DNA of 64,000 bases, taken from positions 15,821-79,820 of the forward strand of contig CAZFKS010000003.1 in NCBI GenBank assembly GCA_964519725.1, in the 5' to 3' direction. Both the position numbers and the translations under genes were made by a program. Numbering within the stretch: the stretch's first letter is position 1; the number at the start of each line of letters is the position of its first letter. Below, piece by piece: positions 34,090 to 61,124 of this stretch. Source of the stretch: an uncultured Gammaproteobacteria bacterium. GTDB lineage: Bacteria > Patescibacteriota > Patescibacteriia > Magasanikbacterales > UBA922. The notes beneath the pieces are model-generated. The model had not been told where the DNA came from. It did no database searches and saw only the letters and a program-made list of their open reading frames with translations.

Positions 34090-34101
34090 CGAGGGTGAAA
34101 C

Positions 34102-39213: not shown

Positions 39214-39229
39214 GTTTCCCCGGGGAAAC
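39214..39229. promoter_or_regulatory. 16-bp perfect palindrome GTTTCCCCGGGGAAAC (copy 1), candidate operator
   Basis: 10 nt after the giant Cys-rich gene stop and about 195 nt upstream of the CTLD gene start. Confidence 0.5.
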
Positions 39230-39238
39230 ACGGTTCCT

Positions 39239-42200
39239 TTAGTTGCATGGCAAGCCCTGGTAGCAGACGTTCGCCGCCGTCTTCCCGGCTGGCGAGAGCA
39301 CTCCCGTTCCGGCGTCCTTCGCAACCGCTAGGCTTCCCGTGTAGCAGCAGTTGTCGTCCGCTCCCGTCCAGCTGAACTCGCCGAGACGCGAGTCGACCTG
39401 CGTGTACTGCATGTATCCCGGGTTTCCGCCGTCCTTGGTTCCACACCGGAGGAAGGAGAACCGAAATGGCAGACCGTCGGCGCAGGTCGAACATCCAGGA
39501 TACGGCTTCAGGCCCACCTTGATGTTCGGCAGCAGGTACTCCACCCAGCCATCCCCGTCACTGTCCGAGACGGAGATCTCCTGGTGACCCCAGGCTTCTC
39601 CGTACGCCCAGCCGATCGCGCAGAGAGTCCCGCTCGCAACGAGCGTTGCGAGGTTGGTGCCGTCGTGGAGGTAGAAGGCCGACACCTTTAGGAGGATGCT
39701 CTTGTTGTCGGGGGACAGCTTGATCGCGAGCAGTGACGGGTCGGCGATGCAGGTCCCCCACGCGCAACCGGCAGAGCACGTAAGAGTGCCCGGGTTTCCA
39801 TTCGTCCAGCATGACGTCTTTGCCCCTGGAGCGCAGGCTCCTTCGCCTTGGCACTGACCCCAGCTCCAGACGCACGAGCTCGTGCAGGTCCGAATCCGCG
39901 AGCCGCAGTTTCCACAGGCGACCGAGTCCTGTGTGCCGGCCATGCAGACGCCACTTTGACCCATACACGTGGTCCAAGCGCCCCAGAGGCAGGTCGCCCC
40001 GCATGTGCGCGACTGGGTGCCGCACATGCCGCAGCTCGCCGTCTGGCTCCCGCCCGCAGGTGAACACGTCCCATCCGCATAGCCATCGCAGTCGTCGTCC
40101 TTCGAGTTCCCGCATACCTCGGCAATGGGAACGACCTCTCCGACACAGGCGCCGAGGCTGCCTCCCGAGCAGCTCCGAACGCCGGGCTTGCACGCGCCGA
40201 CTCCCTTCGTCGCTGCCGGTCCGGAATAGCAGGACTCGGTGTAGGCCGTAGCCACGTGGGTGCAGCCGCTCGAGCTCGCGCACGAGTCCTGGGTGCAGGG
40301 GTTACCGTCGTTGCATGCCGCGGCCGTCCCCGAGCAGAGCCCAGCCTGGCAAACGTCACCAGTCGTGCAGGCGTTCCCGTCGCTGCAGCTCCCTCCGGTC
40401 TGCGCCGCGTGGGTGCAGCCGGATGCCGCCGCGCACCCGTCCACGGTACAAGGCAAGCCATCGTCACACGGGACCGGCGTCCCCTTGCACGTGCCACTCG
40501 CGCAGGAGTCGTTCGTCGTGCAAGCGCTCCCATCAGAACAAGCACCAGGGGAAGGCGTGAACACGCATTGCCCGCTCGCGCAGGAGTCCGAAGTGCAAGG
40601 GTTCGAGTCATTGCAGACGAGCCCGGCGCCTGCGCAGGTTCCACTCGTGCACGTGTCGCCCTGCGTGCACGGGTTCCCATCGGAGCAGGCGGTGCCATTC
40701 GCAAGCGCGCCGTGCGCGCAAGCTCCCTGGCTGCAGGCGTCGCTCGTACAGGCGTTCCCGTCATCTGGGCACGCTCCGGACGCCGCTGGATAGCTGCATC
40801 CACTTGCTGGAACACACTCGTTGCTCGTGCAGGGATTTCCGTCGTTGCACGTGACGGGCTGGCCCTGACACGCACCCGCGACGCAGACGTCGGACGCCGT
40901 ACACGCGCTCCCATCGCTGCAGAGCGTTCCGTTGCCCACAGCGGTAAGAAGGCACGTTCCCGTAGCCGGCTGGCACGCGTTCTTCTGACACGCGTTCGCG
41001 GATGCGGGGCACGTCACAATGCTGCCTGGCTTGGTCGCGCATTCGTTGAGGACGTTGCAATACCGACTGCCGTTGCACTTGTCCGCGTCGTCCGGGCAGT
41101 CCGCATCGGTCTGGCAGGCGCACACGAGGGCGCCCGCCTTGCAGCTGCCGTTCTGGCAGGCGTCTCCGGCTGTGCAAGCGTTGCCGTCGCTGCACGCGGC
41201 CGTGTTGTTCACGGTCTGACAGCCCGAGGCGGGCGCGCAGGAGTCGTTGGTGCAGGGATTCGAGTCATTGCAGACGACCGGCACGCCTGCGCAGGTCCCG
41301 TTCGCGCAGGCGTCTCCGCTCGTGCACGCGCTCCCATCAGAGCACGAGGCTCCTGAGAGCTTCGCGTGCGTGCAAGCTCCGGTCGCTGGCACGCAGGCGT
41401 CCGTGGTGCAGTCGTTCCCGTCATTGCAGTTCGTGACCGTCCCCACGCATGCTCCAGCGACGCAGACGTCCCCCGTGGTGCAGGGGTCATTGTCCGAGCA
41501 CGCGTAGGCGCTGCCGGACACCTTCGGGTGCGTGCAGACGCCGTTCTGGCAGCTGTCGCCAGTGCAGGGGTTGCCGTCGTCCTGGCACGCGGTGCCGTTC
41601 GGCTTCCCCGCGCACGGAGCGCAGCCGTCATCCGGAACGCCGTCACAGTCATCGTCGAGATTGTTGCCGCAGACCTCGAGTACGGCCCCGCAGCCGCCGC
41701 AGGGGTTCTTGACGCCGTCGTCGACCACCGCATCGCAGTCATTGTCCTTCCCGTCGCAGGCCTCGACGAGTCCAGGCCGTGCGCTCGCGTCGTGATCGTC
41801 GCAATCCCCCTGATTCGGCGTGTATCCATCCTGGTCCGTATCCGCGCACGCTGGCGCCAGACTCCCGCCCTTGCAGGTTCCGCTGGCGCACGTGTCACCG
41901 AGGGTGCAGGCGTTTCCGTCCGAGCACGCCGCTCCGGCTGTCACGGCGGGGTGCGTGCAGGACCCGTTGTCACAGACGTCGAGCGTGCATGGGCTGCCAT
42001 CGTTGCACTGCGCGCCGCTTGTGCACTCGCACGCGAGCCCCGCCTTGCACGCACCGGCCTCGCAGTAGTCGCCATGGGTGCACACCGCCGGATTTTGAAC
42101 GCACGGTCCCGACGCGTAGCTCCACTGGCAGCCGACGCCGACGTTGCACCAGTTGTTCGTGCAGACGTTCTCGTCGGAGCACGCGGCGTCGCTCGGGAAC

Positions 42201-45127
42201 CCGATGCAGTCCCCTGTCTCGGTAACAACATCCCCCGTGGTGCAGGCTATGCCGTCGTCGCACGGCTCCCCCGGAACCGGCCCGCAACCATCGTCGACCG
42301 TGCCGTTGCAATCATTGTCGAGGTCGTCGCCGCAAATGTCGTTGTGCTCGTAGTCCTCAGGATCAACCAGCGGATTGCTGTCGTCGCAGTCGGTGTGGCA
42401 GTTCCATTCCGCGGCCGGGTACGCGTTGGTGGCGTAGCACTGACAGACGGAGATGGACGGGGCGCCGCATCCGTCCTTGTCCATATCGACGTAGAACGGC
42501 TTGCAGTTCGGGCCGTTCATGTCGTTATGCGTCCCGTCGCAGTCGTCATCCTCCTCGGTCGTGCAGTCTTCGGTTGCTGCGCAGCTCGTGCAGGTCGAGG
42601 TGTCGAACTTGCAGTTCACGCAGCCAAGTTGGCCACTCGGCTTGCCCTTTGCTTGGCAACTCGAGGGAATCGCGGAGCCATCACACTCCTCAGCTCCCTC
42701 GACGATGCCATTGCCGCAGATGGGGTTGATACCCCCGCAGTCCGAGTCGGGCCAGTCAGCCTTGCCGTCGCAGTCGTCGTCGAGCCCATTCCCGCACTGC
42801 TCAGCGCCGAGGACCGCATGCACCTTCGGGTCGTAGTCGTTGCAGTCGCCGGCGACGAGCGTCGAATAGATCCCGAGGGGGCCGCACGCGCAGCGGATGT
42901 CGCCCTCCTGACCGTACCCATCCTGGTCGACGTCCAAGTAGTAGGGGGTGCAGCCAGGGCCGTTGCGGTCATCAACATCGGTGTAGCCGTCGCAGTCCTC
43001 ATCCACCCCGTTCCCGCAGGACTCAGTGGCTGCCGGTGACACCGCGCCATCCGAGTCGTTGCAGTCGTCGCTGTTCGTCGAAGTAAACACGCCAGACGGC
43101 CCGCACATGCAAACGTCGCCGTTGATCCCGCCGTACCCGTCGCCGTCATCATCCTCGTAGTACGTGGAACAGCCCGTGAGGCTGAAGTCCTCGGTGTCGA
43201 CCTTCCCGTCGCAATCGTTGTCCTTGCCGTCGCAGATCTCCTGACCTGAACAACCCGCGCCGCCGCACTCGGTGTCCTCGCCGTCGACGGCGCCATCACA
43301 GTCATCGTCGGCCCCGTTCGAGCAGCTCTTCTCCTTGGCTTGGCAGCCGTACCCGCACGAACTGACGACGAACGTGCATTTGGTCGAGCACTTGAGGACG
43401 CCTGCGGTGCTGTAGTCGAGCGTGTCACACGTCGCCCCGCCGAACTGGGTACCGTCGCAGAACTCGCCCGGGTCCAGCACCCCGTTCCCGCATTTGGAAC
43501 CACCCCCAGCGACGCCTCCCTGCGGATTCCCGGTCAGCTTGGCGTAGTCCAAGCTGACCTCGTCGAACTCCGTATCGCTGCAGGCCTTCGCGAAGTCGAA
43601 GCGGACCAGAGTGACTGGGCCGCCGTCGGTCCAGCACCTGTTAGTACTCATGTCGAGGTTGAACGTGCACCACTCGCCAACGCCGCATTGAATCGTCCCG
43701 CATACCTTGATGTTGGCGTCGTTCGGTGCAGAGAAGTTAGCGCAATCCACCTCGCTTCCGTTCCACGAGATCTTCTTGGAGCCCTTGAAGTAGAGGCACG
43801 CGGTCCGGTCAGCACAACGTGACGACAGGTAGGAGCTAAACTGGCTGCAGGTTTTTCCATCGATCCACGCATTTTTAAACGTAATGCTTGGATCAGTTGC
43901 CGCAGGGTCGAGGTTCCACGGGATGGCGTCGCCTGGTGGCGGTTGCCGTGTTTTCCCTCTTCCCGGTTCCACGACCCAGCCAGAGAACCCCTTACTGGCA
44001 AACTTCCAGTTCGGGCACCCGGCGGCGTTCGGAACGGGAGTCTTCGTCGCTAGGTCGCAAGTTGTTCCGTCTGGGGGTATGCAGGCGCCGCCACAGCCAT
44101 CGGTTTCAGGGCCACATTTGGCGCCATCGCATTTCGGAACACAGCAAATATTAGCCTTCGTGCATACCGCTGGGAGCGTGCACCCCGGACAGAGCTTCCC
44201 AGGGCAGTTGCTCGCCTGACCGCACTTGCCGGCGCACTGCGGAACGCAGCAGTCTGGGTCCTTGGAATCCGTCGCACCATCGTCGTCATCATCCAGGAGG
44301 TCACCACAGAAAGATTCGTGTCCGGCCGGCGTGCAAGCGCCGCATGTGAACGTGGCCTCAGCTCCGTGATCCTCGATCGCGCCGGGAGCACAAAAACCGG
44401 GTGTCCATCGTTCGAACTGAGCTTCCGGTCCACAGTCAAACCCGGCCCCTGACCCGGCGCCCATGAAGTATGGGCATCTGTCGACGACCTCCGAAACGAG
44501 CCACTTCTTGAGCACGCAATGCGTCGAAAAAGACGTGGCCGCCACGCTAGCTGTTGTGCTTTTCGTGGATCCGGGAAACAGTGGCAATGCAAAGTGGTAA
44601 TCGGTCTTTTCCTTCAAGAGGGTCGCGTCGTATACCCCGACAGCAAAGTTGCCGCCGAACGTCTCAGGCTTGCTCAAGAGGAAATCATAGTACTTGTCCG
44701 TTGCTATCTGGTTGTTTGCAAGAAACGGCAAGCCGCACGTTTTCACGTAGTCCCAGGTGTTGAACTTACCGATTGGCTTGTCGTAGTTGAAGACGTCGAC
44801 GTAGTAGTTCCCAGCTGGCAGATTCGTGTCCAACTGCTTGGAGGTGAAGTTGAAGTCCTTGCCAGGATTTAGTGCATCCCAACCCGGGGCTGCGAACGTG
44901 TGATCGCACACGTCCACCTGGATCTCCAACGCAGATGTCCCGTTCGCATAGGTCGGGAAGCTGGGCTTCTTTTCATACCGAAAATCCACACGCACCAGAT
45001 GGTGTGTCAGGGTCACTTTCAGGTAGTCCGGCTTCGGTATCGTCCCCGCGCTTGCCGTGAAGCTTCCGACGAGCAGGCACCAGCTGACGACGGCAGAAAT
45101 TCCAGGGGAGATCGGCATGATGCTCAC
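39239..45127 (-). CDS. 1,962-aa secreted cysteine-rich repeat protein (Myxococcus-type CGNGxxExxEECD repeats, CDGxDNDCDG putative metal-binding motifs, many about 27-aa CxDGNxCTxDxCxxGxC repeats)
   Basis: Signal peptide MSIMPISPGISAVVSWCLLVGSFTASAG; one continuous ORF. Antisense ORFs listed over it are Arg/Ala-rich composition artefacts. Confidence 0.75.
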   Translation of the reverse strand: MSIMPISPGISAVVSWCLLVGSFTASAGTIPKPDYLKVTLTHHLVRVDFRYEKKPSFPTYANGTSALEIQVDVCDHTFAAPGWDALNPGKDFNFTSKQLDTNLPAGNYYVDVFNYDKPIGKFNTWDYVKTCGLPFLANNQIATDKYYDFLLSKPETFGGNFAVGVYDATLLKEKTDYHFALPLFPGSTKSTTASVAATSFSTHCVLKKWLVSEVVDRCPYFMGAGSGAGFDCGPEAQFERWTPGFCAPGAIEDHGAEATFTCGACTPAGHESFCGDLLDDDDDGATDSKDPDCCVPQCAGKCGQASNCPGKLCPGCTLPAVCTKANICCVPKCDGAKCGPETDGCGGACIPPDGTTCDLATKTPVPNAAGCPNWKFASKGFSGWVVEPGRGKTRQPPPGDAIPWNLDPAATDPSITFKNAWIDGKTCSQFSSYLSSRCADRTACLYFKGSKKISWNGSEVDCANFSAPNDANIKVCGTIQCGVGEWCTFNLDMSTNRCWTDGGPVTLVRFDFAKACSDTEFDEVSLDYAKLTGNPQGGVAGGGSKCGNGVLDPGEFCDGTQFGGATCDTLDYSTAGVLKCSTKCTFVVSSCGYGCQAKEKSCSNGADDDCDGAVDGEDTECGGAGCSGQEICDGKDNDCDGKVDTEDFSLTGCSTYYEDDDGDGYGGINGDVCMCGPSGVFTSTNSDDCNDSDGAVSPAATESCGNGVDEDCDGYTDVDDRNGPGCTPYYLDVDQDGYGQEGDIRCACGPLGIYSTLVAGDCNDYDPKVHAVLGAEQCGNGLDDDCDGKADWPDSDCGGINPICGNGIVEGAEECDGSAIPSSCQAKGKPSGQLGCVNCKFDTSTCTSCAATEDCTTEEDDDCDGTHNDMNGPNCKPFYVDMDKDGCGAPSISVCQCYATNAYPAAEWNCHTDCDDSNPLVDPEDYEHNDICGDDLDNDCNGTVDDGCGPVPGEPCDDGIACTTGDVVTETGDCIGFPSDAACSDENVCTNNWCNVGVGCQWSYASGPCVQNPAVCTHGDYCEAGACKAGLACECTSGAQCNDGSPCTLDVCDNGSCTHPAVTAGAACSDGNACTLGDTCASGTCKGGSLAPACADTDQDGYTPNQGDCDDHDASARPGLVEACDGKDNDCDAVVDDGVKNPCGGCGAVLEVCGNNLDDDCDGVPDDGCAPCAGKPNGTACQDDGNPCTGDSCQNGVCTHPKVSGSAYACSDNDPCTTGDVCVAGACVGTVTNCNDGNDCTTDACVPATGACTHAKLSGASCSDGSACTSGDACANGTCAGVPVVCNDSNPCTNDSCAPASGCQTVNNTAACSDGNACTAGDACQNGSCKAGALVCACQTDADCPDDADKCNGSRYCNVLNECATKPGSIVTCPASANACQKNACQPATGTCLLTAVGNGTLCSDGSACTASDVCVAGACQGQPVTCNDGNPCTSNECVPASGCSYPAASGACPDDGNACTSDACSQGACAHGALANGTACSDGNPCTQGDTCTSGTCAGAGLVCNDSNPCTSDSCASGQCVFTPSPGACSDGSACTTNDSCASGTCKGTPVPCDDGLPCTVDGCAAASGCTHAAQTGGSCSDGNACTTGDVCQAGLCSGTAAACNDGNPCTQDSCASSSGCTHVATAYTESCYSGPAATKGVGACKPGVRSCSGGSLGACVGEVVPIAEVCGNSKDDDCDGYADGTCSPAGGSQTASCGMCGTQSRTCGATCLWGAWTTCMGQSGVCMAGTQDSVACGNCGSRIRTCTSSCVWSWGQCQGEGACAPGAKTSCWTNGNPGTLTCSAGCAWGTCIADPSLLAIKLSPDNKSILLKVSAFYLHDGTNLATLVASGTLCAIGWAYGEAWGHQEISVSDSDGDGWVEYLLPNIKVGLKPYPGCSTCADGLPFRFSFLRCGTKDGGNPGYMQYTQVDSRLGEFSWTGADDNCCYTGSLAVAKDAGTGVLSPAGKTAANVCYQGLPCN

Positions 45128-45133
45128 TCCGGG

Positions 45134-45829
45134 CTAGTTGGGTTGGCCGGACTCGCGAGAAAGAGGTTGCTGGGGCAGGATGATTGGCCACACGGCCGCT
45201 GAACTTTCGCCTTGTCCATGAACGGCACGAATGAAGGCAGGATAGGTGAGCCACATCGACAGGATTGCCTGCCCGGACCCACGAATTCGGAACCCGTAGA
45301 TTGCCAAGCGACCGCCTTCAAGTGCCGTTGACAAGTCTTCCAGCTTGCGTCGGCGCTGAGATTCCTCGGTCAACTTCATTTCGTAGTGCAGGCTGCTCCG
45401 GACGGCAGCGTCTGCTTCCCCAAGATCTGAGCCGTCAACGACGTCGAGTTCGAGATCCTGGGACGTGCTCGTCGAAAGCACCGAGTAGGAAACGACGCGG
45501 ATATCGTGAGCATTTCCCAGGACGGACGCGAGCTCCTCTGGCGTCATGAGGGAAGGGAGAAGGACTTCTCCCACCAGGACACTTGAACCGAACGACCGGA
45601 GTTCCTCAAACCACAACTTCTGCAACGCCGCGTCCTCCGCCCTCAGGGCCAGACACACCGTCGCGTTACTTTCGACTCTGGACGCCGAAGAACCAGGCGG
45701 GCAGTTGAGAACCCGCGGTTCCCTGAAGTCGCCCTCCGACCCGCATGCCACCAGTAGCAGTACAGCCAATAGGAGGGTGATCCACGGACACCAACCAAAG
45801 TCGCGAGGATAAGTGTTGATAGAATTCAT
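45134..45829 (-). CDS. lipoprotein, co-transcribed with the giant Cys-rich protein
   Basis: In-frame ATG at 45829 gives MNSINTYPRDFGWCPWITLLLAVLLLVACGSEG (lipobox). Stop 7 nt before giant gene start. Confidence 0.55.
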   Translation of the reverse strand: MNSINTYPRDFGWCPWITLLLAVLLLVACGSEGDFREPRVLNCPPGSSASRVESNATVCLALRAEDAALQKLWFEELRSFGSSVLVGEVLLPSLMTPEELASVLGNAHDIRVVSYSVLSTSTSQDLELDVVDGSDLGEADAAVRSSLHYEMKLTEESQRRRKLEDLSTALEGGRLAIYGFRIRGSGQAILSMWLTYPAFIRAVHGQGESSAAVWPIILPQQPLSRESGQPN

Positions 45830-45938
45830 ATGCCTTATTGTCTCACACGGCACACCAGCACGCAAGCGCGTGCGCGATCGGCTGTGGCGATGCCACAGGC
45901 GGTCGAAGACCAGTCTTGACCAAAGTGGGGCTTCCGCC

Positions 45939-45954
45939 GTTTCCCCGGGGAAAC
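45939..45954. promoter_or_regulatory. 16-bp palindrome GTTTCCCCGGGGAAAC (copy 2) in divergent promoter region
   Basis: Between the lipoprotein gene start (45829, minus) and the GHKL gene start (45998, plus). Confidence 0.5.
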
Positions 45955-45997
45955 GACTGGGTTCGTTCTTTCTTCCACGCTCGTCTGACGGCACGAT

Positions 45998-48085
45998 TTG
46001 ACCGGTCTCGGGTGTCCGGCTACCGTGTTCCGAGTGAAGGAGATCGAACTAGGCAACAGCGCAGCAAGCAGCCCCGTGCCCGAGCCGCCGCAGCCCGAGA
46101 TGAAAGTCGACGTGCTCGGGTGCGTGCGCGCGACTCACGTCCCGAAGGATTCGGCCTTTCTTCCGGTATTTGAAGCCGTCGTGAATGCGATCCATTCAAC
46201 TCAGGATCGATTCGGTACTGACGTTTTGGCTCAAGGACGGATCGAAGTGCGTGTTGTGCGCGTTCCTCAGCCTGATCTCCCTGGCTCGCCGGGTCGCCCT
46301 AGCGTCCTTCCGATCGAGCGCGTGGTTGTCACGGATAACGGCCAGGGATTTACGCCGCGGAACCTCGGTTCGTTCCAGACGGCGTACACGACGGCCAAGC
46401 TTGACCGAGGCGGGAAGGGCGTTGGGCGCTTTTCGTGGCTCGCCGTGTTTCGCGAAGCTCACGTCGAAAGCACGTACCATGAGGAGTCCGGCCCGCGGCG
46501 CCGGTCTTTCACGTTCCGCCCGACCCCCCGCGGAATCGAAGGTCACACCGACCTGCCGGTCGAGCCTGAGGCCGAACTCACAACAGCGGTCGAGCTTCGC
46601 GGCATTCAGCCGAAGTACGCGGACGCACTTCGCCGCGGAACCGACGTCATAGCCGAGAAGATCTTCGAGCATTGTTTCCCCTACTTCGTGGTCGGCGACT
46701 GCCCCGAGGTATTGCTAGTCGACGTCCTTCCTGACGGGGCTGAGCGTGTTCTCGTCAACGACAAAGTGAAGGAACTGCGGATCGGCCCGCCCCAGCCGCT
46801 GAAAGTCGGCTCTCATGTCCTCGAGGCTCGGCACGTCCAGCAACAACATCGTGGCGAACGACAACACACCGCCCACCTGTGCGCGAACAAGCGAGAAGTA
46901 GAAACGTTCAAGTTGTCAGCAGTTACCGAACTAGGCGACGGACCAATCGCGAGTTCGGATGGACAGTCGCTCGTGCATCACGTATTCGTGAGCGGCGGAG
47001 CGCTCGACGAGGCCGTTAACAGCGTTCGAACCCGGTTGGTTCTCGCAGAGGACGATTCGTTGTTCGCGAGCGCCGGCGAACTCGACATGAAGAGCATCAA
47101 GGCTGCCGCTGGTGAGCAGGTCCGGACCGAGCTCGCAGGGTTTCTCGAGGACGAGAAGAAAACGAACTTCGAGAGGATCGAGCGGCACATTCGCACCGTG
47201 CAGCCCGAGTACCGCCATCTCCTCACGCGAAAGCCCGATGAGCTCTCGCGCGTCAGGTGGACCGACAACCCACGGCAGCTCGACGAGAACCTCTACAAGG
47301 TCCAACAAGCTTGGGACACTGAGGCTCGTGCGCGACTCGCTGCCGTCGAGGAGAAGGTACTCGAGGGAACCAATCCGGAGCTCTTCGCCGATGAGCTCGG
47401 CCGCGTATCCGCAGAAGTGAATGAAGCCGGTGAGGCGAGCCTGATCAAGTACGTCGTCCGGCGTCGTGCCATCCTCAAGGTGGTTCGCGCTCTCCTTGGT
47501 CGAAATGCGCTCGAAGCACACATTCATCAGATTCTCTTTCCTCCCAAGAAGACCGCCGACGATGTCGAGTACGGTGATCACAACCTGTGGCTCGTCGACG
47601 ACACCTTCTCGTTCTACGAGCACGTCGCGTCCGACCTTCCGTTCTCGGCGATTTCGGCCGCCCCGGTTGACGGCCTGCGGCGGCCGGACCTCCTCGCGTT
47701 CAAGACCGGTGACTCGCCCTACCAGCACGTGGCCCTGCTCGAACTCAAGCGCCCGGAACGTGGCAACGACAACCCCGCCCAGCAGCTCATGGACTATGCC
47801 GTGCTGCTGCGAGAGGGCGGTGCGAAGAACGTGCATCACATGACCATGCCGGGAATCCCGAAGTCCGTTCGCATCGACGGGGTGGCACTTGTTACTCTGG
47901 GCCCCGAGATGGAGCGTCGTCTACGGACAGGGCCGGGGAACCTACGCAAGGCCGATGGTGAATGGCGCTGGTACGGCTTTGTGCCGGAAGAGAACCTAAG
48001 CATTGAGGTTCTCGATTTCCAGGCATTCGTCGTTCGAGCGGAGCAGCGCAACCGAGCGTTCTTCGCAAAGCTCGGCCTGAGCTAG
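45998..48085 (+). CDS. GHKL (histidine kinase/Hsp90/MORC-like) ATPase fused to a C-terminal PD-(D/E)xK-like nuclease domain; candidate single-gene defense protein
   Basis: VVTDNGQGFTPRNLGSFQ...KLDRGGKGVGRFSWLAVF = Bergerat-fold N/G boxes. C-terminus PDLLAFK...HVALLELKRPE = D...ELK nuclease-like motif. Track start is TTG at 45998; ATG at 46103 is an alternative. Confidence 0.6.
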   Translation: MTGLGCPATVFRVKEIELGNSAASSPVPEPPQPEMKVDVLGCVRATHVPKDSAFLPVFEAVVNAIHSTQDRFGTDVLAQGRIEVRVVRVPQPDLPGSPGRPSVLPIERVVVTDNGQGFTPRNLGSFQTAYTTAKLDRGGKGVGRFSWLAVFREAHVESTYHEESGPRRRSFTFRPTPRGIEGHTDLPVEPEAELTTAVELRGIQPKYADALRRGTDVIAEKIFEHCFPYFVVGDCPEVLLVDVLPDGAERVLVNDKVKELRIGPPQPLKVGSHVLEARHVQQQHRGERQHTAHLCANKREVETFKLSAVTELGDGPIASSDGQSLVHHVFVSGGALDEAVNSVRTRLVLAEDDSLFASAGELDMKSIKAAAGEQVRTELAGFLEDEKKTNFERIERHIRTVQPEYRHLLTRKPDELSRVRWTDNPRQLDENLYKVQQAWDTEARARLAAVEEKVLEGTNPELFADELGRVSAEVNEAGEASLIKYVVRRRAILKVVRALLGRNALEAHIHQILFPPKKTADDVEYGDHNLWLVDDTFSFYEHVASDLPFSAISAAPVDGLRRPDLLAFKTGDSPYQHVALLELKRPERGNDNPAQQLMDYAVLLREGGAKNVHHMTMPGIPKSVRIDGVALVTLGPEMERRLRTGPGNLRKADGEWRWYGFVPEENLSIEVLDFQAFVVRAEQRNRAFFAKLGLS

Positions 48086-54938: not shown

Positions 54939-55625
54939 CTACTCGACCGTGCCATCGGCGCGGGCCGCGAGCTGCTCCCGGAGCGCCCCGAGCCGCTCCC
55001 ACGCTTCGTCGAGCTGGAGCCGCATCTCGCGGGCCGCCTTCTCGTCGAGCCCATCCAACTTCGCCGGCGTCAGTCGCTTCAGGTTCAGCCCGTCGAGCGC
55101 CTTCATGACCTTGCGAAGGTTCTTCACCGGCTCTGGCTCCGGCTTCCGTCCCCGCTTCTCCCCCGGAATCTCCTTGGCCCGGACCTTCTTCACCCGCTGC
55201 TCGAGCTCGCGCTTCCCGAGGTTCTTCTCGATAGCTTCGCTCGCGAGCTTCAGCTTCTTCTCCGGGTCCTTGACCGGCAGGAGGAGCTTGTGGTGCGAGA
55301 GCGGGAGCGCCTCCGCGATGTTCTCGGGCAGCTGCTTCAGCTGGTCCACGACCGCGACCGCGTTCCAGATGAACTGGTAGTTCACTCGGAGGTCCGTCCG
55401 CTCCCCGAGCTTTCGGAACGTGACGTGCTTCCTTCCGTGCGTGCGGAAGTTCGCCGTGTCCCCGTCAAAGAACCGGTCGAGGACGTACGACCCGATGGCC
55501 CGGGTCATCTCGAGGCCCTTCGCTACGTAGAGGCGGTTGATCTCGGCAACCGCCTCGGACAGCGCGGCCTCGTCGACTTCGCCACCTTCTTCCGGAACCA
55601 CTGCGAGCGTCTTCTCACGCGCCAT
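54939..55625 (-). CDS. ParB/KorB-like nuclease-domain protein
   Basis: LSHHKLLLPVKDPEKKLKLASEAIEKNLGKRELEQRVKKV resembles the ParB HTH/linker region; 228 aa. Coordinates from ORF track. Confidence 0.45.
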   Translation of the reverse strand: MAREKTLAVVPEEGGEVDEAALSEAVAEINRLYVAKGLEMTRAIGSYVLDRFFDGDTANFRTHGRKHVTFRKLGERTDLRVNYQFIWNAVAVVDQLKQLPENIAEALPLSHHKLLLPVKDPEKKLKLASEAIEKNLGKRELEQRVKKVRAKEIPGEKRGRKPEPEPVKNLRKVMKALDGLNLKRLTPAKLDGLDEKAAREMRLQLDEAWERLGALREQLAARADGTVE

Positions 55626-55692
55626 GGCGGCACCTCCAGAGCAGGGACGCTAATCCCCTCCACGCCCTAGGTCAACTCGGAATCAGGTGCTT

Positions 55693-55708
55693 GTTTCCGC
55701 GGGGAAAC
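55693..55708. promoter_or_regulatory. 16-bp near-palindrome GTTTCCGCGGGGAAAC (copy 3, one asymmetric position)
   Basis: About 68 nt upstream of the ParB-like gene start; next to element B copy 1. Confidence 0.45.
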
Positions 55709-55731
55709 ATGCCGTCCCGCAGGGACGTGCT

Positions 55732-55868
55732 TCCCCCTCTGGGGGAGGGGTGGCCGTGAAGCGGGCGGCCCTCCGGCATAGGGGGACCGAGGGGGTGACG
55801 GGGCCAGCGGCCGCCCCGCCCCCAAGGGGGGCGGAAGCGCCGCGGCCATAAGAAGATAGGCCCACCCG
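55732..55868 (-). repeat. element B copy 1: about 137-bp GC-rich multi-hairpin element just downstream of the P-gene stop
   Basis: TCCCCCTCTGGGGGAGGG...GCCGCCCCGCCCCCAAGGGGGGCGG...GATAGGCCCACCC; about 88% identical (by eye) to 61125-61263. Confidence 0.6.
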
Positions 55869-55871
55869 CAT

Positions 55872-56228
55872 TTATTCATTCTGCCTGGCCGCAAGCGCGG
55901 CGCGGAGACGGCGGGCGCGCCGGTCAAGCGAAACAAGCGTCTTCGCGAGTTCGGCCGTAGGGAGCCGGTGGTAGTACTCGAACATGACGGCTTCCCAGTC
56001 GAAGACAAGGGCGGCGTCGGGCTCGCCCGGCACCGAGAACGCGACGGACGCGGCGTAGATTTCCATCGCTATCGGCTCGTCCTGGGCGTGCAGCGTGAAC
56101 GCGAGGCCCGTCGACTCGACGAACGCCGCGAGCTGCGTCGGCGATGGGCGCCGGGATGGAAACGCGGACCGTAGCCGGTCGGCTATCCCCCGTGCGGTGG
56201 CGAGCCGGTTCTTTCGGTCGCGGGTCAT
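55872..56228 (-). CDS. small protein, family P member 1 (unknown function)
   Basis: 118 aa; homologous to the genes at 56225-56587 and 61268-62005 (QLAAFVESTGLAF...ALVFDWEAVMFE...LDRRARRLR). Confidence 0.5.
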   Translation of the reverse strand: MTRDRKNRLATARGIADRLRSAFPSRRPSPTQLAAFVESTGLAFTLHAQDEPIAMEIYAASVAFSVPGEPDAALVFDWEAVMFEYYHRLPTAELAKTLVSLDRRARRLRAALAARQNE

Positions 56229-56587
56229 AGGACTGCAAGTCGGGCGGCGAGCGCGGCGCCAACCGTCTGGGCCTCGGCGTCAAGCCGAAGAATCTCTTCG
56301 GCGAGCTCTTCCATGGTCCAGTGGCTGCCGAAGCCGAAGAGCGCTTCGTCGCCAAAGAGGGCGCCTGACACAAGGGACGTACCTGAAAGCGGAATCGTGA
56401 GTGGCGCGACGGCGACGAACGCCCGGAACCCGGTTTCCGGGTCGTGCGTGTCAATGAGCCTGACGGTAAGGTCCGAAAAAGACACGAAAGCGGCGATGTC
56501 GTCGTGCGTCGGCGCGTCCGGGAGCTCGTCTCGAAGGCGCTCGGCGAGTGCAAGAACCTCGGGTGAATAGGTCGTATCAGCGGTCAT
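56225..56587 (-). CDS. small protein, family P member 2 (unknown function)
   Basis: 120 aa; overlaps member 1 by 4 nt; shares the DDIAAFVSF...FRAFVAVAPLTIPL core with the paralogs. Confidence 0.5.
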   Translation of the reverse strand: MTADTTYSPEVLALAERLRDELPDAPTHDDIAAFVSFSDLTVRLIDTHDPETGFRAFVAVAPLTIPLSGTSLVSGALFGDEALFGFGSHWTMEELAEEILRLDAEAQTVGAALAARLAVL

Positions 56588-56993
56588 ACGGAACGGTTAC
56601 GAACAAGAGTGCGAGCCCGCGAGTGGTCGGGGCGGCGCGCGGAACACGTGGTTGCCGGTGGTGGTCGAGGTCGTGTCATAGGAGGCGGGCCGGGGCCGTT
56701 ATCCGCCCCGCGGCTCCCGCGTGGCGACTGGACTCCCTGCCCGATACCGGGAGCCGATTAGCCAGGCGGCCCGTCCACAGGTCAAGGCCCTCGGCCGCTC
56801 TCGGACGGGCGCCTTGCCGCCCGGGGGTAACCTGTGGGCGGACGTCTGGCAGGCTCAACCGGCAGGGCGGGAGGCCGGGAGCTGAGCGGGACCGCTCGTG
56901 TTCGCGTTGTCTCTCGGCTGTTGGCTGTTCGGGTGGGCCTGTCCGGCCGACGTGCGCCGTGGGGCGCCGACGGCAAGGACTCCTTATGGGGGG
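56588..56993 (-). repeat. element A copy 1: about 400-bp conserved non-coding leader directly upstream of the P-gene start codon (candidate structured RNA / regulatory leader)
   Basis: About 95% identical (by eye) to the split copy at 62006-62367 plus 62797-62853. Contains long GC stems, e.g. CGGCTCCCG...CGGGAGCCG and GGCGGCCCGTCC...GGACGGGCGCC. Track ORFs over it are Arg/Pro-rich artefacts. Confidence 0.6.
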
Positions 56994-57056
56994 AGCCGCG
57001 CCGCGGCGACTAAGTCCCCCATGGAAGCCCGGCGCGCGCGGGCGCAGCGATAGCGT

Positions 57057-57072
57057 GTTTCCCCGGGGAAAC
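57057..57072. promoter_or_regulatory. 16-bp palindrome GTTTCCCCGGGGAAAC (copy 4)
   Basis: Between the SMC-like ATPase gene stop and leader element A copy 1. Confidence 0.5.
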
Positions 57073-57172
57073 AGCATGACCTGGCGCGCTTGCGGCCACG
57101 TTCGCACCCAACCGCGTTCCCACGGCGACGGCCGTTCGTTCGCCACATTTGGCCGAGTTGCGCCACCGCTTC

Positions 57173-58957
57173 CTACTTCACTTCGCCGAGGAAGTGCGGA
57201 CTCTTGGGCCCCTGGAAGGTCGGGGCCCAGGTCTCATCGATCCCTGCCGGCACAACCTCAATATCGGTGGCGCTGTACACGAGCTGAATGGGCGGGTCAG
57301 TCGTCGAGATCATCTTCTTGAACTCAACGACGAAGTCTCGTAGGTCCTCGGCGCTCAGCTCTTGTTGACGGGGCGCATCCAAGATAAGAACTCGGGGATG
57401 CTGCCCGTTCGTCTTGAGCGAGGCTTCGACGAGTGCGGCGTGATATGCGAGCACGAACCGGGCTCGCGTGCTGCCCGAATGACCAGAACCCTTCTTGAAG
57501 ACTTCTCCGTCCACGACGAATCGAAAATCTTCATCCCACGTGACGTCGAGAGCGGTGTTAGGAGTTCGGAGGACCGCCAGCCACCTTCGCGCTGCACCGG
57601 CCAATGCTGATCGAGCGTCGAGGACCCGGTCTCCCGGGCCGCTCCGCCTCGCTCGTGGACGGAGGGAGTCAACTAACTCGGCTTCGGCCCGCTCGCGGTC
57701 GAGAAGGGCGTTGAGCTGGGCTCGCTCGCGCTCGATGCGCTGCAGCCGATCGAGACGGACCCGAACGTCACCGATCTCTCTACTCAGGGTGTCAAGCATG
57801 GCCACGACCGATTCGCCGGGGCTCCGGGCGAGGCCGTCAGTCTTCTCTTTGACGGTAGTATCGAGGGCCGCCTGCGCTTCAGCGAGCTGCGAACCAAGCA
57901 GCCCGATTTCGGTATTCGCGTCCCCGATCCCCGTGACGAAGTCCTTGAGCTGGTCCCTCAAGTAGAGCACCCGGCGGCCATATGACGCTTCCGGGTTCCG
58001 GAAAAACTGGCAACTGCCACTGCCGCACAGCCTTCGGAACACGTCGGCCGCAATTTCGTTCTGTTCGAGAGCAGACAACTCGGTCTCAATCTCGGCCTGA
58101 GCGGCTTGCACCTGCATCATCCGACGCCTCAGGGCGCCATGTCGTTGGCCTAGCTCGTCGCGAATCCTCGTTGCCTCTCGGATTCGGCCATCGTAGACCG
58201 CACTGTCCGCAGCCAACACCTCGAGTGCGGAGTACATCCGAGTTAGCTCGCGCTCCAGGGTCGCGTGCCGCTCCCGAAGTAGAACCGCGCCATCGGGGCT
58301 GGCATCGGCGCCAGTTTCGCGCTGGAGCGCTTCGAGCCCGAGCCTCTTGAACGATATCTGTTCGCGTGTGCCGCCAAGACGTTCTTCAGCGGTTCGGAAG
58401 GCAGACTTGTCGACGGGCTTGTGCTTCGGTGGCAGGTCGAGGAGCCACCGCACCACTTCCTCGCGCTGGTCTCGCACGAACGTAGCTGTCGGCTCGTACC
58501 CGGTGGTCCAGCCCCCGTCCTGCTCAACCAAGAACATCGGGCCAGCCACGCTCAGGTACGCCGGAACTGGAGAGCCGTCACCACTTGAGGTGAGAGTCCG
58601 CGGCGCCGTACCGATTCTCGGAAGTACCCACGCCGAGAGTTCTCGCTCGGTTGCGATTTCGGTGCGCTCGCCGTCAGGTCCCTGAACGCGCACCTCAACT
58701 CCCTTTGCAACGATCTGCCGTTCGAGCGTGTGCTCGCCTAGGCCATCCGTGAGAACGAGGCGGACTGCTTGGCAGCGCTCGCGCACGTCCTTCGGGAACT
58801 CCACCGGAAGCCCCAGCGCGTACATAATCGCCTTCATTACCGGCGTCTTGCCGGAGCCGTTCGGCCCGAGGACCACCGTCGTGTGGCGCCCGAAGCGGAG
58901 TTTGCCAGAGCCCCAGCCTGCTTCGCCCCGCGGGAGGATTTCGAATTCAGTGAGCAT
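57173..58957 (-). CDS. SMC/ABC-type ATPase with central coiled coil (LmuB/DdmC-like)
   Basis: VVLGPNGSGKTPVMKAI Walker A at N-terminus; long Ala/Arg/Glu/Leu-rich coiled coil; C-terminal RVLILDAP Walker-B-like box (Asp-Ala rather than Asp-Glu). ATG overlaps upstream stop (ATGA). Confidence 0.7.
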   Translation of the reverse strand: MLTEFEILPRGEAGWGSGKLRFGRHTTVVLGPNGSGKTPVMKAIMYALGLPVEFPKDVRERCQAVRLVLTDGLGEHTLERQIVAKGVEVRVQGPDGERTEIATERELSAWVLPRIGTAPRTLTSSGDGSPVPAYLSVAGPMFLVEQDGGWTTGYEPTATFVRDQREEVVRWLLDLPPKHKPVDKSAFRTAEERLGGTREQISFKRLGLEALQRETGADASPDGAVLLRERHATLERELTRMYSALEVLAADSAVYDGRIREATRIRDELGQRHGALRRRMMQVQAAQAEIETELSALEQNEIAADVFRRLCGSGSCQFFRNPEASYGRRVLYLRDQLKDFVTGIGDANTEIGLLGSQLAEAQAALDTTVKEKTDGLARSPGESVVAMLDTLSREIGDVRVRLDRLQRIERERAQLNALLDRERAEAELVDSLRPRARRSGPGDRVLDARSALAGAARRWLAVLRTPNTALDVTWDEDFRFVVDGEVFKKGSGHSGSTRARFVLAYHAALVEASLKTNGQHPRVLILDAPRQQELSAEDLRDFVVEFKKMISTTDPPIQLVYSATDIEVVPAGIDETWAPTFQGPKSPHFLGEVK

Positions 58958-59436
58958 CAGAGTAGCTCCAGACCTCGGAGTCGAACCCGCTCGTGTGCCT
59001 TTGCGAGTGATCGAACAAGCGCACCAACATCGGTAATTTGAACCCGCAGATCCGAAAGAAGTGCCCGGCCGGTGGCGGAGGTGCTGACGCGACGAAGCGA
59101 CCCCTCGACCACATCAACCAAGCCAACAGTCTCAAGAATTGCGAGACCATCGGCGCACCGAGCGCGAAGCGAAACAGACCACTTCAGTCGACTTCTCGTC
59201 CCTCCGTCCGGGTCGAATCGCTCTGCAAGCACCGCGAGTGTCCATGTGGCTAGTTCACTGGTGCGGAGTTCGCCGTGACGCGCGTGTGTCACGACAAGAA
59301 TCGCGAGTGCGATAAGAGGCGTGTGGAAGAGCGTGTCGGCCGACAGGCCAGCTACGCGGTCGAGCCCGTCGGCGTTGACCTGCAACCGGACGTTTGCCGC
59401 CATTGCTGCTTCGATCAATTGTTCGAGGGTCCTCAC
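58957..59436 (-). CDS. small middle subunit of the three-gene operon (LmuC/DdmB-position protein)
   Basis: 159-aa ORF (GTG start at 59436, or ATG 59403) overlapping both neighbours. Confidence 0.45.
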   Translation of the reverse strand: MRTLEQLIEAAMAANVRLQVNADGLDRVAGLSADTLFHTPLIALAILVVTHARHGELRTSELATWTLAVLAERFDPDGGTRSRLKWSVSLRARCADGLAILETVGLVDVVEGSLRRVSTSATGRALLSDLRVQITDVGALVRSLAKAHERVRLRGLELL

Positions 59437-60605
59437 GGCTCCGCCTCGACAGCCAGCGCCAGGATCGCGCCGAAAACGAGTGACTTGGTGAGTGGCTTCG
59501 TGGCGCCAATTGTGGCGTACCTCTGTGCGAGTGCACTCGCCTCATTCACGAGCCAGTCTAACGCCTTTCGGTCGGACACGTAGATCCGGAGCACGTCGCG
59601 GCAGTCCTTCTTTAGCAGGAGCAGGTCAGCAAGGTCGATCGTGGATCGTTCGGCGATAACCCACTCATCCCATCCCGTCTTCAGCTGACACCAGTCGGGA
59701 ATATGTGATTCGTCAATGCCGCTTCGCTGACAAAGCCGGTGAAGGCGCGAAAGAGCTACTACAGTTTGAAGGCCGGTCTCCTTAAGCGCTCGGTATCCCG
59801 TCGCCGAGAGGCTGAGGAGCTTTAGGATGTCCTCGAGGACGAGCGCCTTTTCCGACCGCAAGTCTGCCGGTGTCGACGGAAGGGCCTTCAGCACACGCTG
59901 GGACTTTCCGCGCACGACCGTGACAAGGCTTTCGCCGATGCGGAGTGCCTCGGACATTCGCAGGTCGACCTCAGAGAGCTTTCGAATTCGATTGCCGATC
60001 TCCAGCCGGCAGACGTCCTGATCGTGGAGTTTCCCGACGCACTCCTGCACGTGGAGACGCTGGAGGAAGGAGAGGAAGCTGGCCTCATCAAGACCAGGAA
60101 CCGCGGCCGGAAGGACTGCCACGACGTCCTGAAATATCCGAAGCGACTCACCGGCAAGCTGCGAATGAGAGGTGACGTTCTTCGCCTCCGTCAACAGGGC
60201 GTCGAACTCCGACGCAACCGCGGCGTTCGTGACGAAGACGAATCGGGCGCAACGCCCTCCGAAGCGAGTGGTGTGATCGAACATCTTCGGAAAAATGGCG
60301 GTCGCGTCGGCGGTGTACGGTGCCCTACGTCCTTTGAGCCCGAAGAACTCCTTCCACGACCAGGGACCTTCACTCGGCGAGCGGGTCTTCACCTGGTGGA
60401 ATCGGTACGAGATTATCGTGGCTTCCTCGAATACGTAGTCATCATGCCACTCGCAATAGATGCACACGTACTGATTTTCATCGAGAACGAGAAGCGCATC
60501 GTATGCCGCTTGATGATATTGGAACTCATAACGAGCGCCGGTGACGGCGCCGACCTGCTCGCGCGGCTCGCTCTGAAACAGTTCACGTCCGACCGGAGCG
60601 CTCAC
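59433..60605 (-). CDS. DUF4297-like (Cap4/LmuA-type) PD-(D/E)xK nuclease-domain protein, candidate effector
   Basis: N-terminus GARYEFQYHQAAYDALLVL then CEWHDDYVFEE...FHQVK fits the D...QxK restriction-endonuclease-like core; 390 aa; GTG start. Confidence 0.55.
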   Translation of the reverse strand: MSAPVGRELFQSEPREQVGAVTGARYEFQYHQAAYDALLVLDENQYVCIYCEWHDDYVFEEATIISYRFHQVKTRSPSEGPWSWKEFFGLKGRRAPYTADATAIFPKMFDHTTRFGGRCARFVFVTNAAVASEFDALLTEAKNVTSHSQLAGESLRIFQDVVAVLPAAVPGLDEASFLSFLQRLHVQECVGKLHDQDVCRLEIGNRIRKLSEVDLRMSEALRIGESLVTVVRGKSQRVLKALPSTPADLRSEKALVLEDILKLLSLSATGYRALKETGLQTVVALSRLHRLCQRSGIDESHIPDWCQLKTGWDEWVIAERSTIDLADLLLLKKDCRDVLRIYVSDRKALDWLVNEASALAQRYATIGATKPLTKSLVFGAILALAVEAEP

Positions 60606-60984
60606 CGCAGGTCACCTCTTGTCCAGTCAGTGCCTTGAGGTGCGCGCGGTCACGCACCGTAGGCAGATCCCGTTCATCGCCGATACAGTAAGTGGGGCGG
60701 AGGTAGGCGTCAATCCGGGAAATTGCGGAAGCACCGAGTTCTCTTTGGGGGAGGAGACGGAGGAGACGGCAACTTCCCGCGGTCAAATCCATGTGCGGTC
60801 CTGTCCCACTGGCTGCGCCCGAAATGCCCGTCGACAGCAAGAACAGGTGATCGTCTTCTTCGCGAACAGGGACGATGAAACGCGAGTCCAATGCCCGCAT
60901 GGGCGGGACCGCGGCTGACAGGACGTCCTCGTCGACTGGAAGGACGCCCGGGAGTGAAGATGCAGGCGCGTTGCTATCATCCAT
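60583..60984 (-). CDS. possible 133-aa ORF at the head of the operon
   Basis: ATG at 60984 lies 51 nt downstream of a GTTTCCCCGGGGAAAC palindrome and overlaps the next gene by 23 nt. No domain. Could be spurious. Confidence 0.25.
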   Translation of the reverse strand: MDDSNAPASSLPGVLPVDEDVLSAAVPPMRALDSRFIVPVREEDDHLFLLSTGISGAASGTGPHMDLTAGSCRLLRLLPQRELGASAISRIDAYLRPTYCIGDERDLPTVRDRAHLKALTGQEVTCGERSGRT

Positions 60985-61034
60985 GAGAACCCGTCCTGGC
61001 GACCGGGATTACGGAGCGTCAACGGAGCAAGCCT

Positions 61035-61050
61035 GTTTCCCCGGGGAAAC
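61035..61050. promoter_or_regulatory. 16-bp palindrome GTTTCCCCGGGGAAAC (copy 5)
   Basis: 51 nt upstream of the ORF starting at 60984. Shares flanks cctGTTTCCCCGGGGAAACacg with copy 1. Confidence 0.5.
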
Positions 61051-61124
61051 ACGCCAGGCGCGCGTTGTCGAAAGACAGCAGCCGGCCAAGCGTTCTCGTT
61101 CGCGGGCGATGCCGCGAACGGACA

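Follow-up and report, generated by a model that had tools for sequence, protein, structure and literature searches.

What is the role of a palindrome that recurs between the genes of a bacterial defence island, and which protein might read it? This question is raised by a 64,000-nucleotide stretch of contig CAZFKS010000003.1 (positions 15,821 to 79,820; the whole stretch is called the window here). An earlier note on this DNA had described five intergenic copies of a 16-bp palindrome and had suggested that they were operators of a dimeric transcription factor or, alternatively, recombination sites. We found that the palindrome belongs to an 18-bp site that accompanies the gene of a 228-amino-acid ParB-like protein (54939-55625, minus strand) through otherwise unrelated loci. 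We propose that the five palindromes are probably parS-like binding or loading sites of this protein, which is predicted to lack a CTPase domain, would probably autoregulate its own gene and would control or organize the island. Palindromes and protein together most likely form an undescribed 'protein plus scattered sites' module in anti-phage defence islands.

Five palindromes lie between the genes of the island

The 16-mer GTTTCCCCGGGGAAAC is present in four exact copies (39214, 45939, 57057 and 61035), and a fifth copy at 55693, GTTTCCGCGGGGAAAC, differs from it by one mismatch. In 100 dinucleotide shuffles of the window the mean number of copies was 0.03 and no shuffle gave five, which bears out the claim that the repeat is beyond chance; no further match was found in the window at up to two mismatches. 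Four of the five copies widen to an 18-bp palindrome with half-sites TGTTTCCCC and GGGGAAACA. The full 18-mer, TGTTTCCCCGGGGAAACA, is exact at 39213, 57056 and 61034, has one internal mismatch at 55692 and has two mismatches, both in the outermost bases, at 45938; no other site lies within three mismatches anywhere in the 64 kb. Beyond the full sites there are two lone half-sites TGTTTCCCC, with a chance expectation of 0.58 for half-site matches of any kind. All five copies are confined to the right-hand part of the window, which has 58-68% GC (about 62%), and no match was found in the left 32 kb. In the limited sequence that we examined, in which no whole genome was counted, nothing pointed to scattering of the motif across the genome.

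Under a reasonable gene model all five copies are intergenic, as the earlier note had stated. Site 1 (39213-39230, exact 18-bp palindrome TGTTTCCCCGGGGAAACA) lies 10 nt 3' of the stop of a gene for a 1962-amino-acid protein (39239-45127, minus strand) and about 195-256 nt 5' of a C-type-lectin gene (36685-39018, minus strand), with a TTGACG hexamer 16 nt away on the minus strand (39196-39191). Site 2 (45938-45955), in which the 16-bp core GTTTCCCCGGGGAAAC is exact and the outer bases are C/G, not T/A, occupies the divergent spacer between a lipoprotein gene (about 45134-45830, minus strand) and a gene for a weak GHKL protein (45998-48085, plus strand). Its core at 45939 falls within the longest open reading frame (ORF) there (45134-45994, minus strand), yet lies 109 nt 5' of the probable lipoprotein start, which is most plausibly the ATG at 45830, directly followed by a lipoprotein signal peptide. 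Site 3 (55692-55709; TGTTTCCGCGGGGAAACA, with one mismatch that breaks the symmetry) is 68 nt 5' of the start of the ParB-like gene. Site 4 (57056-57073, exact 18-mer) stands 100 nt 3' of the lmuB stop (57173) and 470 nt 5' of a pair of small genes (56587 to 55872). Site 5 (61034-61051, exact 18-mer) is 51 nt 5' of a 133-amino-acid ORF (60583-60984, minus strand), with a TTGACG hexamer 11 nt away on the minus strand (61022-61017). This ORF heads an operon (57173-60984, minus strand) that had been described as a nuclease/SMC operon carrying a copy at its head. It does carry one, and we identified it as a Lamassu defence system (PADLOC E-values down to 1e-119) and as a candidate target operon bracketed by Sites 4 and 5.

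Four of these distances agree roughly with the earlier statement that the copies lie mostly 45-200 nt upstream of gene starts, and that of Site 4 (57057) does not. Two copies had also been said to have common extended flanks, and this was confirmed for Sites 1 and 3, where 39192-39230 and 55671-55709 are 87% identical over 39 nt. Within the common flank, 16 nt from the palindrome, the strand of the downstream gene carries a TTGAC hexamer.

A candidate binder with a ParB/Noc-type DNA-binding domain

The 228-amino-acid protein (P0001), our proposed palindrome binder, has a marginal match to the Pfam family HTH_ParB, scoring 22.9 bits against a cut-off of 22.6. In a phmmer search of the PDB the four best matches were Noc chains (E 0.0045-0.011), with Spo0J next, and the matches cover helices past the helix-turn-helix (HTH; 'LPENIAEALPLSHHKLLLPVKD…' against 'LPQEVQEAL…ERHARALIALKD…'). 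An AlphaFold model built with 37 homologues is all-helical, with a mean pLDDT of 90. Residues 1-18 are disordered, helices 19-32, 37-53 and 57-63 precede the HTH (68-75 and 83-98), which is followed by four further helices and then, past a low-confidence linker (153-164), by a C-terminal helical hairpin (165-223). Because the model contains no beta strands, it has no ParB_N CTPase fold; there was likewise no Pfam match to a ParB_N CTPase domain and no alpha/beta N-domain in the model, and the GxxRxxA motif was not found in the family alignment. When the model was compared with the PDB by Foldseek, the best 19 matches were all Noc, ParB or Spo0J (probability 0.93-1.0; E-values 0.008-0.16), with TM-scores of 0.57-0.59 normalized to the complex of the Noc DNA-binding domain with the Noc-binding site (NBS). 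The protein is therefore predicted to combine a DNA-binding domain of the ParB/Noc type with a short N-terminal module of another kind, and it is the N-terminal helices that the family alignment identifies as the most conserved part.

This family is large and unnamed. A word-indexed search returned 48 homologues, all of them unnamed and without Pfam domains, and a profile search of 1.84 billion cluster representatives (50% identity) returned 2,143 at E<=1e-3 and 1,214 at E<=1e-10. We found no Pfam or NCBIfam model for the family, and a tblastn search with the 228-amino-acid protein against 72,556 plasmids gave no match. Viral contigs yielded neither relatives of the family nor the 18-mer, and a phage origin was dropped for this reason.

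The site follows the gene and covaries with its recognition helix

We examined the linkage of site and gene in 22 distinct homologue loci (241 kb, from assemblies and metagenomes, 40-70% identity), defining a site as a GTT-N10-AAC palindrome with at most one mismatched pair. The loci hold 28 such palindromes, compared with 0.53 in locally shuffled sequence. In 16 of the 22, an 18-bp TGTT…AACA palindrome lies within 250 nt 5' of the start of the ParB-like gene or within 125 nt 3' of its stop. The distances from site to start are 61, 68, 80, 84, 87, 90, 172 and 248 nt, and those from stop to site are 4, 4, 10, 20, 25, 26, 47 and 125 nt. Site variants in these loci are also 18 bp long. Additionally, a near-variant site is found at the 3' end of the gene in L125, ATTTCCCCGGGGAAAT is found 5' of it in L133, and in three further homologues the palindrome is translated as the terminal residues '…FPRGN'. 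The link also holds in the opposite direction: L068, a contig from a Myxococcales metagenome-assembled genome (MAG) that was retrieved by the 18-mer alone, encodes a homologue about 250 nt downstream. Pfam annotation of the genes around the motif in the Myxococcota MAG loci L010, L013, L020 and L068 was uninformative.

Site sequence varies together with a residue of the recognition helix in these loci, as direct readout by the helix would predict. Where the helix reads …IWNAVA… (W-N), the half-site is TGTTTCCCC: the exact 18-mer is present in the window, L123, L126, L139, L143 and L145, and L140 has one outer-base change. The same or a near-identical site, with half-site TGTTTCCCC, goes with W-K in L068 and L146. 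All four loci with …IWY(S/A)VA… (W-Y) have half-site TGTTCACGC (L120, L127, L147 and, with one mismatch, L142), W-R in L130 goes with TGTTACACC, and W-K in L131 goes with TGTTCCCGC. We hold with considerable confidence that the 18-mer is the cognate site of the 228-amino-acid protein. The regulator had been called not identifiable in the window, wrongly in our view: by linkage and recognition-helix covariation, the ParB-like gene at 54939-55625 (minus strand) is the obvious candidate.

The gene content of the homologue loci differs fully from one to the next, but is made up of defence systems or mobility genes. The neighbours include Thoeris-like TIR/SIR2, AAA_15 and Lamassu (L123), BREX and IS21 (L125), pPIWI_RE (L139), QatABCD (L143), a type IIG restriction-modification (R-M) enzyme and ImmA/IrrE (L145), SIR2-HerA (L146), serine recombinases and a tail-like cluster (L120), a relaxase, RadC and tyrosine integrases (L140) and an integrase (L142). 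No conserved partner gene adjoining the ParB-like gene was found across the loci.

These results bear on the possibility that the palindromes are operators of an unlinked dimeric transcription factor, with the ParB-like gene as merely one of its targets. Such a factor would fit the position of four of the five sites, 50-260 nt 5' of gene starts, and the TTGAC hexamers 11-16 nt from three of them. It leaves unexplained that the site tracks one gene family through otherwise unrelated loci and changes with the recognition helix of the ParB-like protein, and sites are also found after stop codons and between convergent genes, as described below. We consider this explanation improbable.

Sites lie at operon borders, many of them probably outside core promoters

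Upstream of the ParB-like gene we read by eye a promoter-like element (55647-55675, minus strand) with a -35 hexamer TTGACC (55675-55670), a 17-nt spacer and a -10 hexamer TAGCGT (55652-55647). We infer this element, since the consensus scanner did not report it. Site 3 is 16 nt upstream of the -35 hexamer. A similar arrangement, TTGAC(C/G)-N17-TAnnnT 16-38 nt downstream of the palindrome, is seen in the window, L126, L130 and L131 and is less clear in L145. The centre of the palindrome would lie at roughly -60 to -80 of the promoter of the ParB-like gene, outside the core promoter.

Long homologue loci carry extra copies. L123 has three sites: one in a divergent spacer 20 nt 5' of a TIR gene, one 172 nt 5' of the ParB-like gene and a third near lmuA, with the TIR cluster between two of them. 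The third, about 36-51 nt 5' of lmuA, is orthologous in placement to Site 5, which precedes the first ORF of the Lamassu operon here; the motif is thus present in an orthologous position. This check and that for scattering, within the limited sequence examined, both went in favour of the earlier reading. In L139 one site lies between convergent genes after the pPIWI_RE operon, one lies 4 nt past the stop of the ParB-like gene and one lies between another convergent pair. L140 has three sites, one of them within a called gene of unknown function, and two sites in L146 bracket the SIR2-HerA system. Related loci also have sites between convergent genes or 2-47 nt after stop codons. The extra copies suggest that sites occur at operon borders generally, not at promoters alone. 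The earlier proposal of a dimeric-factor operator thus stands in part: the palindrome has the behaviour of a binding site for a dimeric HTH protein and adjoins the heads of several operons, the ParB-like gene among them, whereas a promoter-occluding geometry is not what we found, given that 16-38 nt separate the site from the -35 hexamer downstream of it and that others lie between convergent genes or after stops, in the manner of parS or of the OB sites of plasmid RK2.

Sites at both ends of an operon might instead mark the joints of defence modules that are moved by a site-specific recombinase or a transposase. The bracketed modules (Lamassu between Sites 4 and 5, SIR2-HerA in L146 and the TIR cluster in L123), the wholly different content between sites among loci and the frequency of recombinases as neighbours are all in keeping with such cassette boundaries. 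Bracketing is expected anyway if each operon border has a site. Moreover, the 18-mer is perfectly symmetric and has no asymmetric core to give polarity, the 32-kb island part of the window (31.8-64 kb) yielded no gene for a recombinase or integrase, and this explanation predicts no covariation with an HTH protein. Integron attC sites and other recombinase core sites are imperfect palindromes with an asymmetric core and a nearby integrase, and no such core or integrase is present at the island 18-mer. Recombination sites, the alternative offered earlier, are for these reasons a highly improbable explanation, slightly more so than an unlinked regulator.

The least probable explanation, to which we give very little weight, is that the palindromes are structural hairpins, either repetitive extragenic palindromic (REP)-like repeats or bidirectional terminators, that have no dedicated protein. 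Each copy can fold into a 7-bp stem with a 4-nt loop (-10 to -17 kcal/mol in 36-nt contexts), and several copies stand just past stop codons or between convergent genes. However, no copy is followed by the T-run (U-tract) of an intrinsic terminator, a terminator consensus scan of 54.5-61.4 kb reported none at any palindrome there, and the fold z-scores are modest (-0.1 to -2.5). REP-like repeats are also at odds with the lack of matches in the left 32 kb, with the few Myxococcota among stretches that carry the 18-mer (4 of 118 listed; see below) and with the local clustering around the gene, and hairpins of either kind leave linkage and covariation with the ParB-like gene unexplained.

The same 18-mer in sphingomonad plasmid loci

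An exact scan for the 18-mer in one genome per species (596 Gb) gave at least 118 listed stretches, about 90% of them from Sphingomonadales and 4 of 118 from Myxococcota. About 9 occurrences of a given 18-mer are expected by chance in 596 Gb (5.96e11 / 4^18). In 62 of the 118 listed, the 18-mer has as neighbours RepA (PF10134), a ParB with ParB_N and SopB_HTH domains and a type Ia ParA, the last being AAA_31 with an N-terminal MerR-type HTH. Among the matches listed, all 48 sphingomonad RepA-ParA-ParB loci with that ParB have their nearest 18-mer 2-201 nt 3' of the parB stop, the classical place of a parS, and one to five copies are usual. Judged by position, TGTTTCCCCGGGGAAACA appears to be the parS of widespread sphingomonad RepA(RPA)-ParA-ParB(SopB_HTH) replicons, and the consistent placement after parB indicates that the 18-mer is used as a ParB-family site elsewhere.

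The cognate ParB of these plasmids is a full-length type Ia protein (ParB_N and SopB_HTH) that comes with ParA and RepA, unlike the island protein. Direct comparison revealed no similarity between the two. That two proteins without such similarity go with the same 18-mer suggests that it is a good ParB-family target, evidently adopted at least twice. A literature search for the exact string found no paper.

Among the matches listed, sphingomonad 18-mers are often paired, 39-67 bp apart, and some genomes, such as those of Novosphingobium taihuense and N. jiangmenense, have dispersed copies over several contigs. Singleton exact matches also occur in unrelated taxa (for example, L050, L070, L086 and L097), a group to be read beside the roughly 9 expected by chance. 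In L050 (1633-1648), a Candidatus Magasanikbacteria MAG contig, the exact 18-mer lies in a stretch of locally raised GC, 51 nt 5' of the gene for a large serine recombinase; this single match could be due to chance, curious though it is beside the Magasanikbacteria-like left flank of the window.

Relation to known ParB-like systems

By sequence and structure search, canonical ParB and Noc have the same DNA-binding fold as the island protein. Half-site TGTTTCCCC reads as a hybrid of parS (TGTTTCAC-GTGAAACA) and NBS (TATTTCCC-GGGAAATA) with one additional base per half-site: its outer bases are those of parS (TGTTTC), and its inner run of C is that of NBS (TTTCCC) (PMC7383237). The canonical parS is 16 bp long (TGTTNCACGTGAAACA), whereas the island site is 18 bp long. 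Unlike canonical ParB and Noc, the island system has no ParB_N CTPase, no ParA and no membrane-targeting helix, and it is not origin-proximal; the protein thus departs from canonical ParB in three features, the CTPase domain, the ParA partner and the 16-bp parS.

The closest likeness in architecture is to ParT of the Streptomyces coelicolor plasmid SCP2. When the AlphaFold model of the island protein is set against the published description, both have a ParB-type HTH middle domain and no CTPase fold; ahead of the middle domain both have a disordered N-peptide and a short helical N-domain, and behind it a linker and a C-terminal domain (PMC12260392). The parS of ParT, TGTCTCCAATTGGAGACA, lies inside parT; both sites are 18-bp palindromes at or in the gene, and six of nine half-site positions match. 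ParT is a CTP-independent ParB-like protein that diffuses from its loading sites, and many ParT-like proteins have no neighbouring ParA (PMC12260392). In contrast to ParT-parS, the island protein is without a ParA partner, has several dispersed sites instead of one and belongs to defence islands or integrative elements in high-GC, Myxococcota-like DNA, not to actinomycete plasmids. Comparisons by hhalign with ParT alone and with the ParT family profile were not significant (for the island family against a 22-member ParT alignment, probability 2%, E 0.022, collinear over 134 columns), and the island protein is not filed as a ParT family member for this reason.

ParT and the sphingomonad plasmids lead to the most serious rival of our proposal, namely that the sites are a partition centromere. 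By analogy with ParT-ParA-parS of SCP2 (PMC12260392) or with sphingomonad RepA-ParAB plasmids, sites and ParB-like protein would segregate an excised or extrachromosomal element, with ParA supplied from elsewhere. The parS-like position of the 18-mer in the sphingomonad par loci fits this idea. So does the arrangement in many homologue loci, where the site directly follows the stop of the gene, much as it does in par operons of type Ia; the gene also has integrases or serine recombinases beside it in L120, L140 and L142, so these elements may excise. However, the 12 annotated homologue loci, over 10 kb on either side, and the island part of the window contain no ParA/CbiA/AAA_31 gene, none of the loci showed a replication gene, and the sites are spread over 22 kb at operon borders instead of being clustered. 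The ParT study itself left homologues without a neighbouring ParA unassigned to partition (PMC12260392). A centromere is, in our view, unlikely.

In site layout, the nearest parallel to our proposal of binding or loading sites is KorB-OB of plasmid RK2, in which palindromes are scattered over a mobile element, often outside core promoters, and one site lies at the operon of the protein itself, as it does for the island protein (PMC11790492). The window has five such dispersed sites over 22 kb, and L123, L139 and L140 have three each. KorB acts on promoters up to 1.5 kb from OB sites, using CTP and KorA (PMC11790492). The likeness is limited to layout: unlike the island protein, KorB has a CTPase N-domain, slides as a CTP clamp, is locked by KorA or TrbA and takes part in partition with IncC (PMC11790492), and we found no such partners or domains (CTPase, KorA/TrbA, IncC) here. 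BisD of ICEclc is likewise a ParB-like protein of an integrative element that affects transcription from a distance, activating remote promoters, and differs in being a CTP-dependent clamp that works with BisC (PMC12409273). The ingredients of the island system are thus known singly, namely a ParB-type HTH, a parS-like palindrome and CTPase-less ParB-like proteins. Their combination in a large unnamed family of CTPase-less ParB-like proteins, with several dispersed 18-bp sites and no ParA, in variable defence islands or integrative elements of Myxococcota-like DNA, appears to be undescribed.

A possible mechanism

We suggest that a dimer of the protein would bind the 18-mer with one HTH per 9-bp half-site (TGTTTCCCC and GGGGAAACA), the C-terminal hairpin being the likely constitutive dimer interface. 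On this model, a change of the recognition-helix residue N88 to Y would be expected to shift preference toward TGTTCACGCGCGTGAACA. The location of Site 3 just upstream of the promoter of the gene suggests autoregulation, in that binding just upstream of its own -35 hexamer would feed back on expression of the protein. Occupancy of the other four sites would link one factor with Lamassu, the lectin gene and the lipoprotein/GHKL pair, and some 22 kb of a variable defence island would be enriched in the protein. Most likely, transcription would then be controlled throughout the island from sites that lie beyond the core promoters, as KorB acts from OB. Because many sites are not in promoters and conservation in the family is highest in the N-terminal helices, we suggest that it may act from a distance, either by ParT-like diffusion from a site or by bridging of sites.

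Several observations weigh against this proposal. The evidence (site enrichment, protein fold, gene-site linkage, covariation and placement) is comparative throughout, and it is from this evidence that we infer physical binding, dimerization, an effect on transcription and any sliding. Five short homologue contigs (1-2.6 kb) have no recognizable site. The covariation classes may each be one clade, in which case they would amount to a handful of events and not to sixteen. The E-values for likeness to ParB and Noc in sequence and fold are weak (0.005-0.1), and the case draws on the consistency of the hit lists. A consensus scan of 54.5-61.4 kb for sigma-70 promoters found none, and sites between convergent genes have no promoter to regulate, which indicates that transcriptional control would not be the whole story. 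Finally, sliding without a CTPase domain is known for ParT alone, and the match between the island family and the ParT profile is not significant.

We also entertain, as a possible though rather doubtful extension, that the unnamed CTPase-less ParB-fold family and its dispersed 18-bp parS-like sites are a 'chromatin mark' of integrative defence islands. If so, the protein would load at its sites and spread or bridge without nucleotide, and costly operons (Lamassu, Thoeris, SIR2-HerA, pPIWI, Qat, BREX and R-M) would be silenced, insulated or co-switched, which would amount to KorB-like global control for defence islands instead of plasmids. Our proposal would turn a large family of 'hypothetical' proteins (about 1,200 clusters at E<=1e-10) into a named one whose DNA target can be tested, would carry the CTP-independent class of ParB-like proteins beyond actinomycete plasmids and would indicate a dedicated DNA-binding organizer or regulator of variable defence islands, a little-known level of control. 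The covariation of site and helix (N, Y, R or K with four half-site variants) would constitute a natural specificity code for experiments and could yield orthogonal ParB-type tools for DNA labelling.

Gene context and origin of the island

Pfam and PADLOC annotation of the window places a complete Type ISP restriction-modification enzyme of 1738 amino acids (49335-54551, minus strand) next to the ParB-like gene. The Lamassu operon comprises the SMC-like LmuB (57173-58957), LmuC (58957-59436) and LmuA, which has a Cap4 nuclease domain (59433-60605), all on the minus strand; the 133-amino-acid ORF at its head overlaps the lmuA start and has no family assignment. The 1962-amino-acid protein has many degenerate Cys-rich repeats with MopE metal-binding and Dictyostelium CTDC motifs, and in its gene these form direct-repeat families with neighbouring copies spaced roughly 150 nt apart. 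A similar giant gene follows the ParB-like gene in L123.

The right part of the window (31800-64000), which is Myxococcota-like in appearance, adjoins a left part (1-31800) of another character. GC rises from about 43% to about 61% at 31750-31850, just past a terminator at about 31.77 kb. The left part encodes housekeeping proteins (pyruvate kinase, FtsA, HisRS, signal peptidase and RibB), a pilin of the type IV secretion system (T4SS) type and a 3762-amino-acid ORF, and its HisRS is 80% identical to that of Candidatus Magasanikbacteria, of the candidate phyla radiation (CPR). An independent Logan contig from the same run (L149) covers 29073-34827 of the window at 100% identity and reproduces the junction. 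More than 32 kb may have entered a CPR genome by a very recent transfer, or else the junction is a chimeric join that arises reproducibly; with a chimera at about 31.8 kb a possibility, the true host of the island is uncertain.

Three small genes of the island encode a common domain of about 110 amino acids without family assignment: the pair at 55872-56228 and 56225-56587, and a 245-amino-acid paralogue with a faint match to DUF6573 at 61268-62005, all on the minus strand. A homologue with 45% identity is found near the ParB-like gene of L145, and these paralogues may be a recurrent accessory module of such islands. A GC-rich repeat of about 145 nt with several hairpins (55725-55868 and 61118-61263, 82-89% identity) separates the 3' ends of the small genes from palindromes 3 and 5; in L126 it abuts the palindrome 5' of the ParB-like gene. 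This repeat could be a 3' untranslated region, a terminator module or a small RNA. A scan of 31.5-64 kb against Rfam at E<=1 gave no match, and known RNA families were dropped as a result.

A second non-coding duplication, of about 330-370 nt, links 56623-56992 with 62050-62367 and 62797-62853 (326 nt at 92.6% identity and 57 nt at 100%). Each copy lies 5' of paralogous small genes, whose amino acid identity is only 33-45%, and the repeat is thus far better conserved than the genes downstream. It had no Rfam match and a fold z-score of -1.7. L126 and L145, which encode the closest homologues of the ParB-like protein, carry the same repeat at about 76% identity. In the window its second copy is split by an insertion of about 430 nt (62368-62796) that looks like a miniature inverted-repeat transposable element: its terminal inverted repeats are 24 nt long (62398-62421 and 62768-62791, 88% complementary), and GGCCTGTCC is duplicated at its joints.

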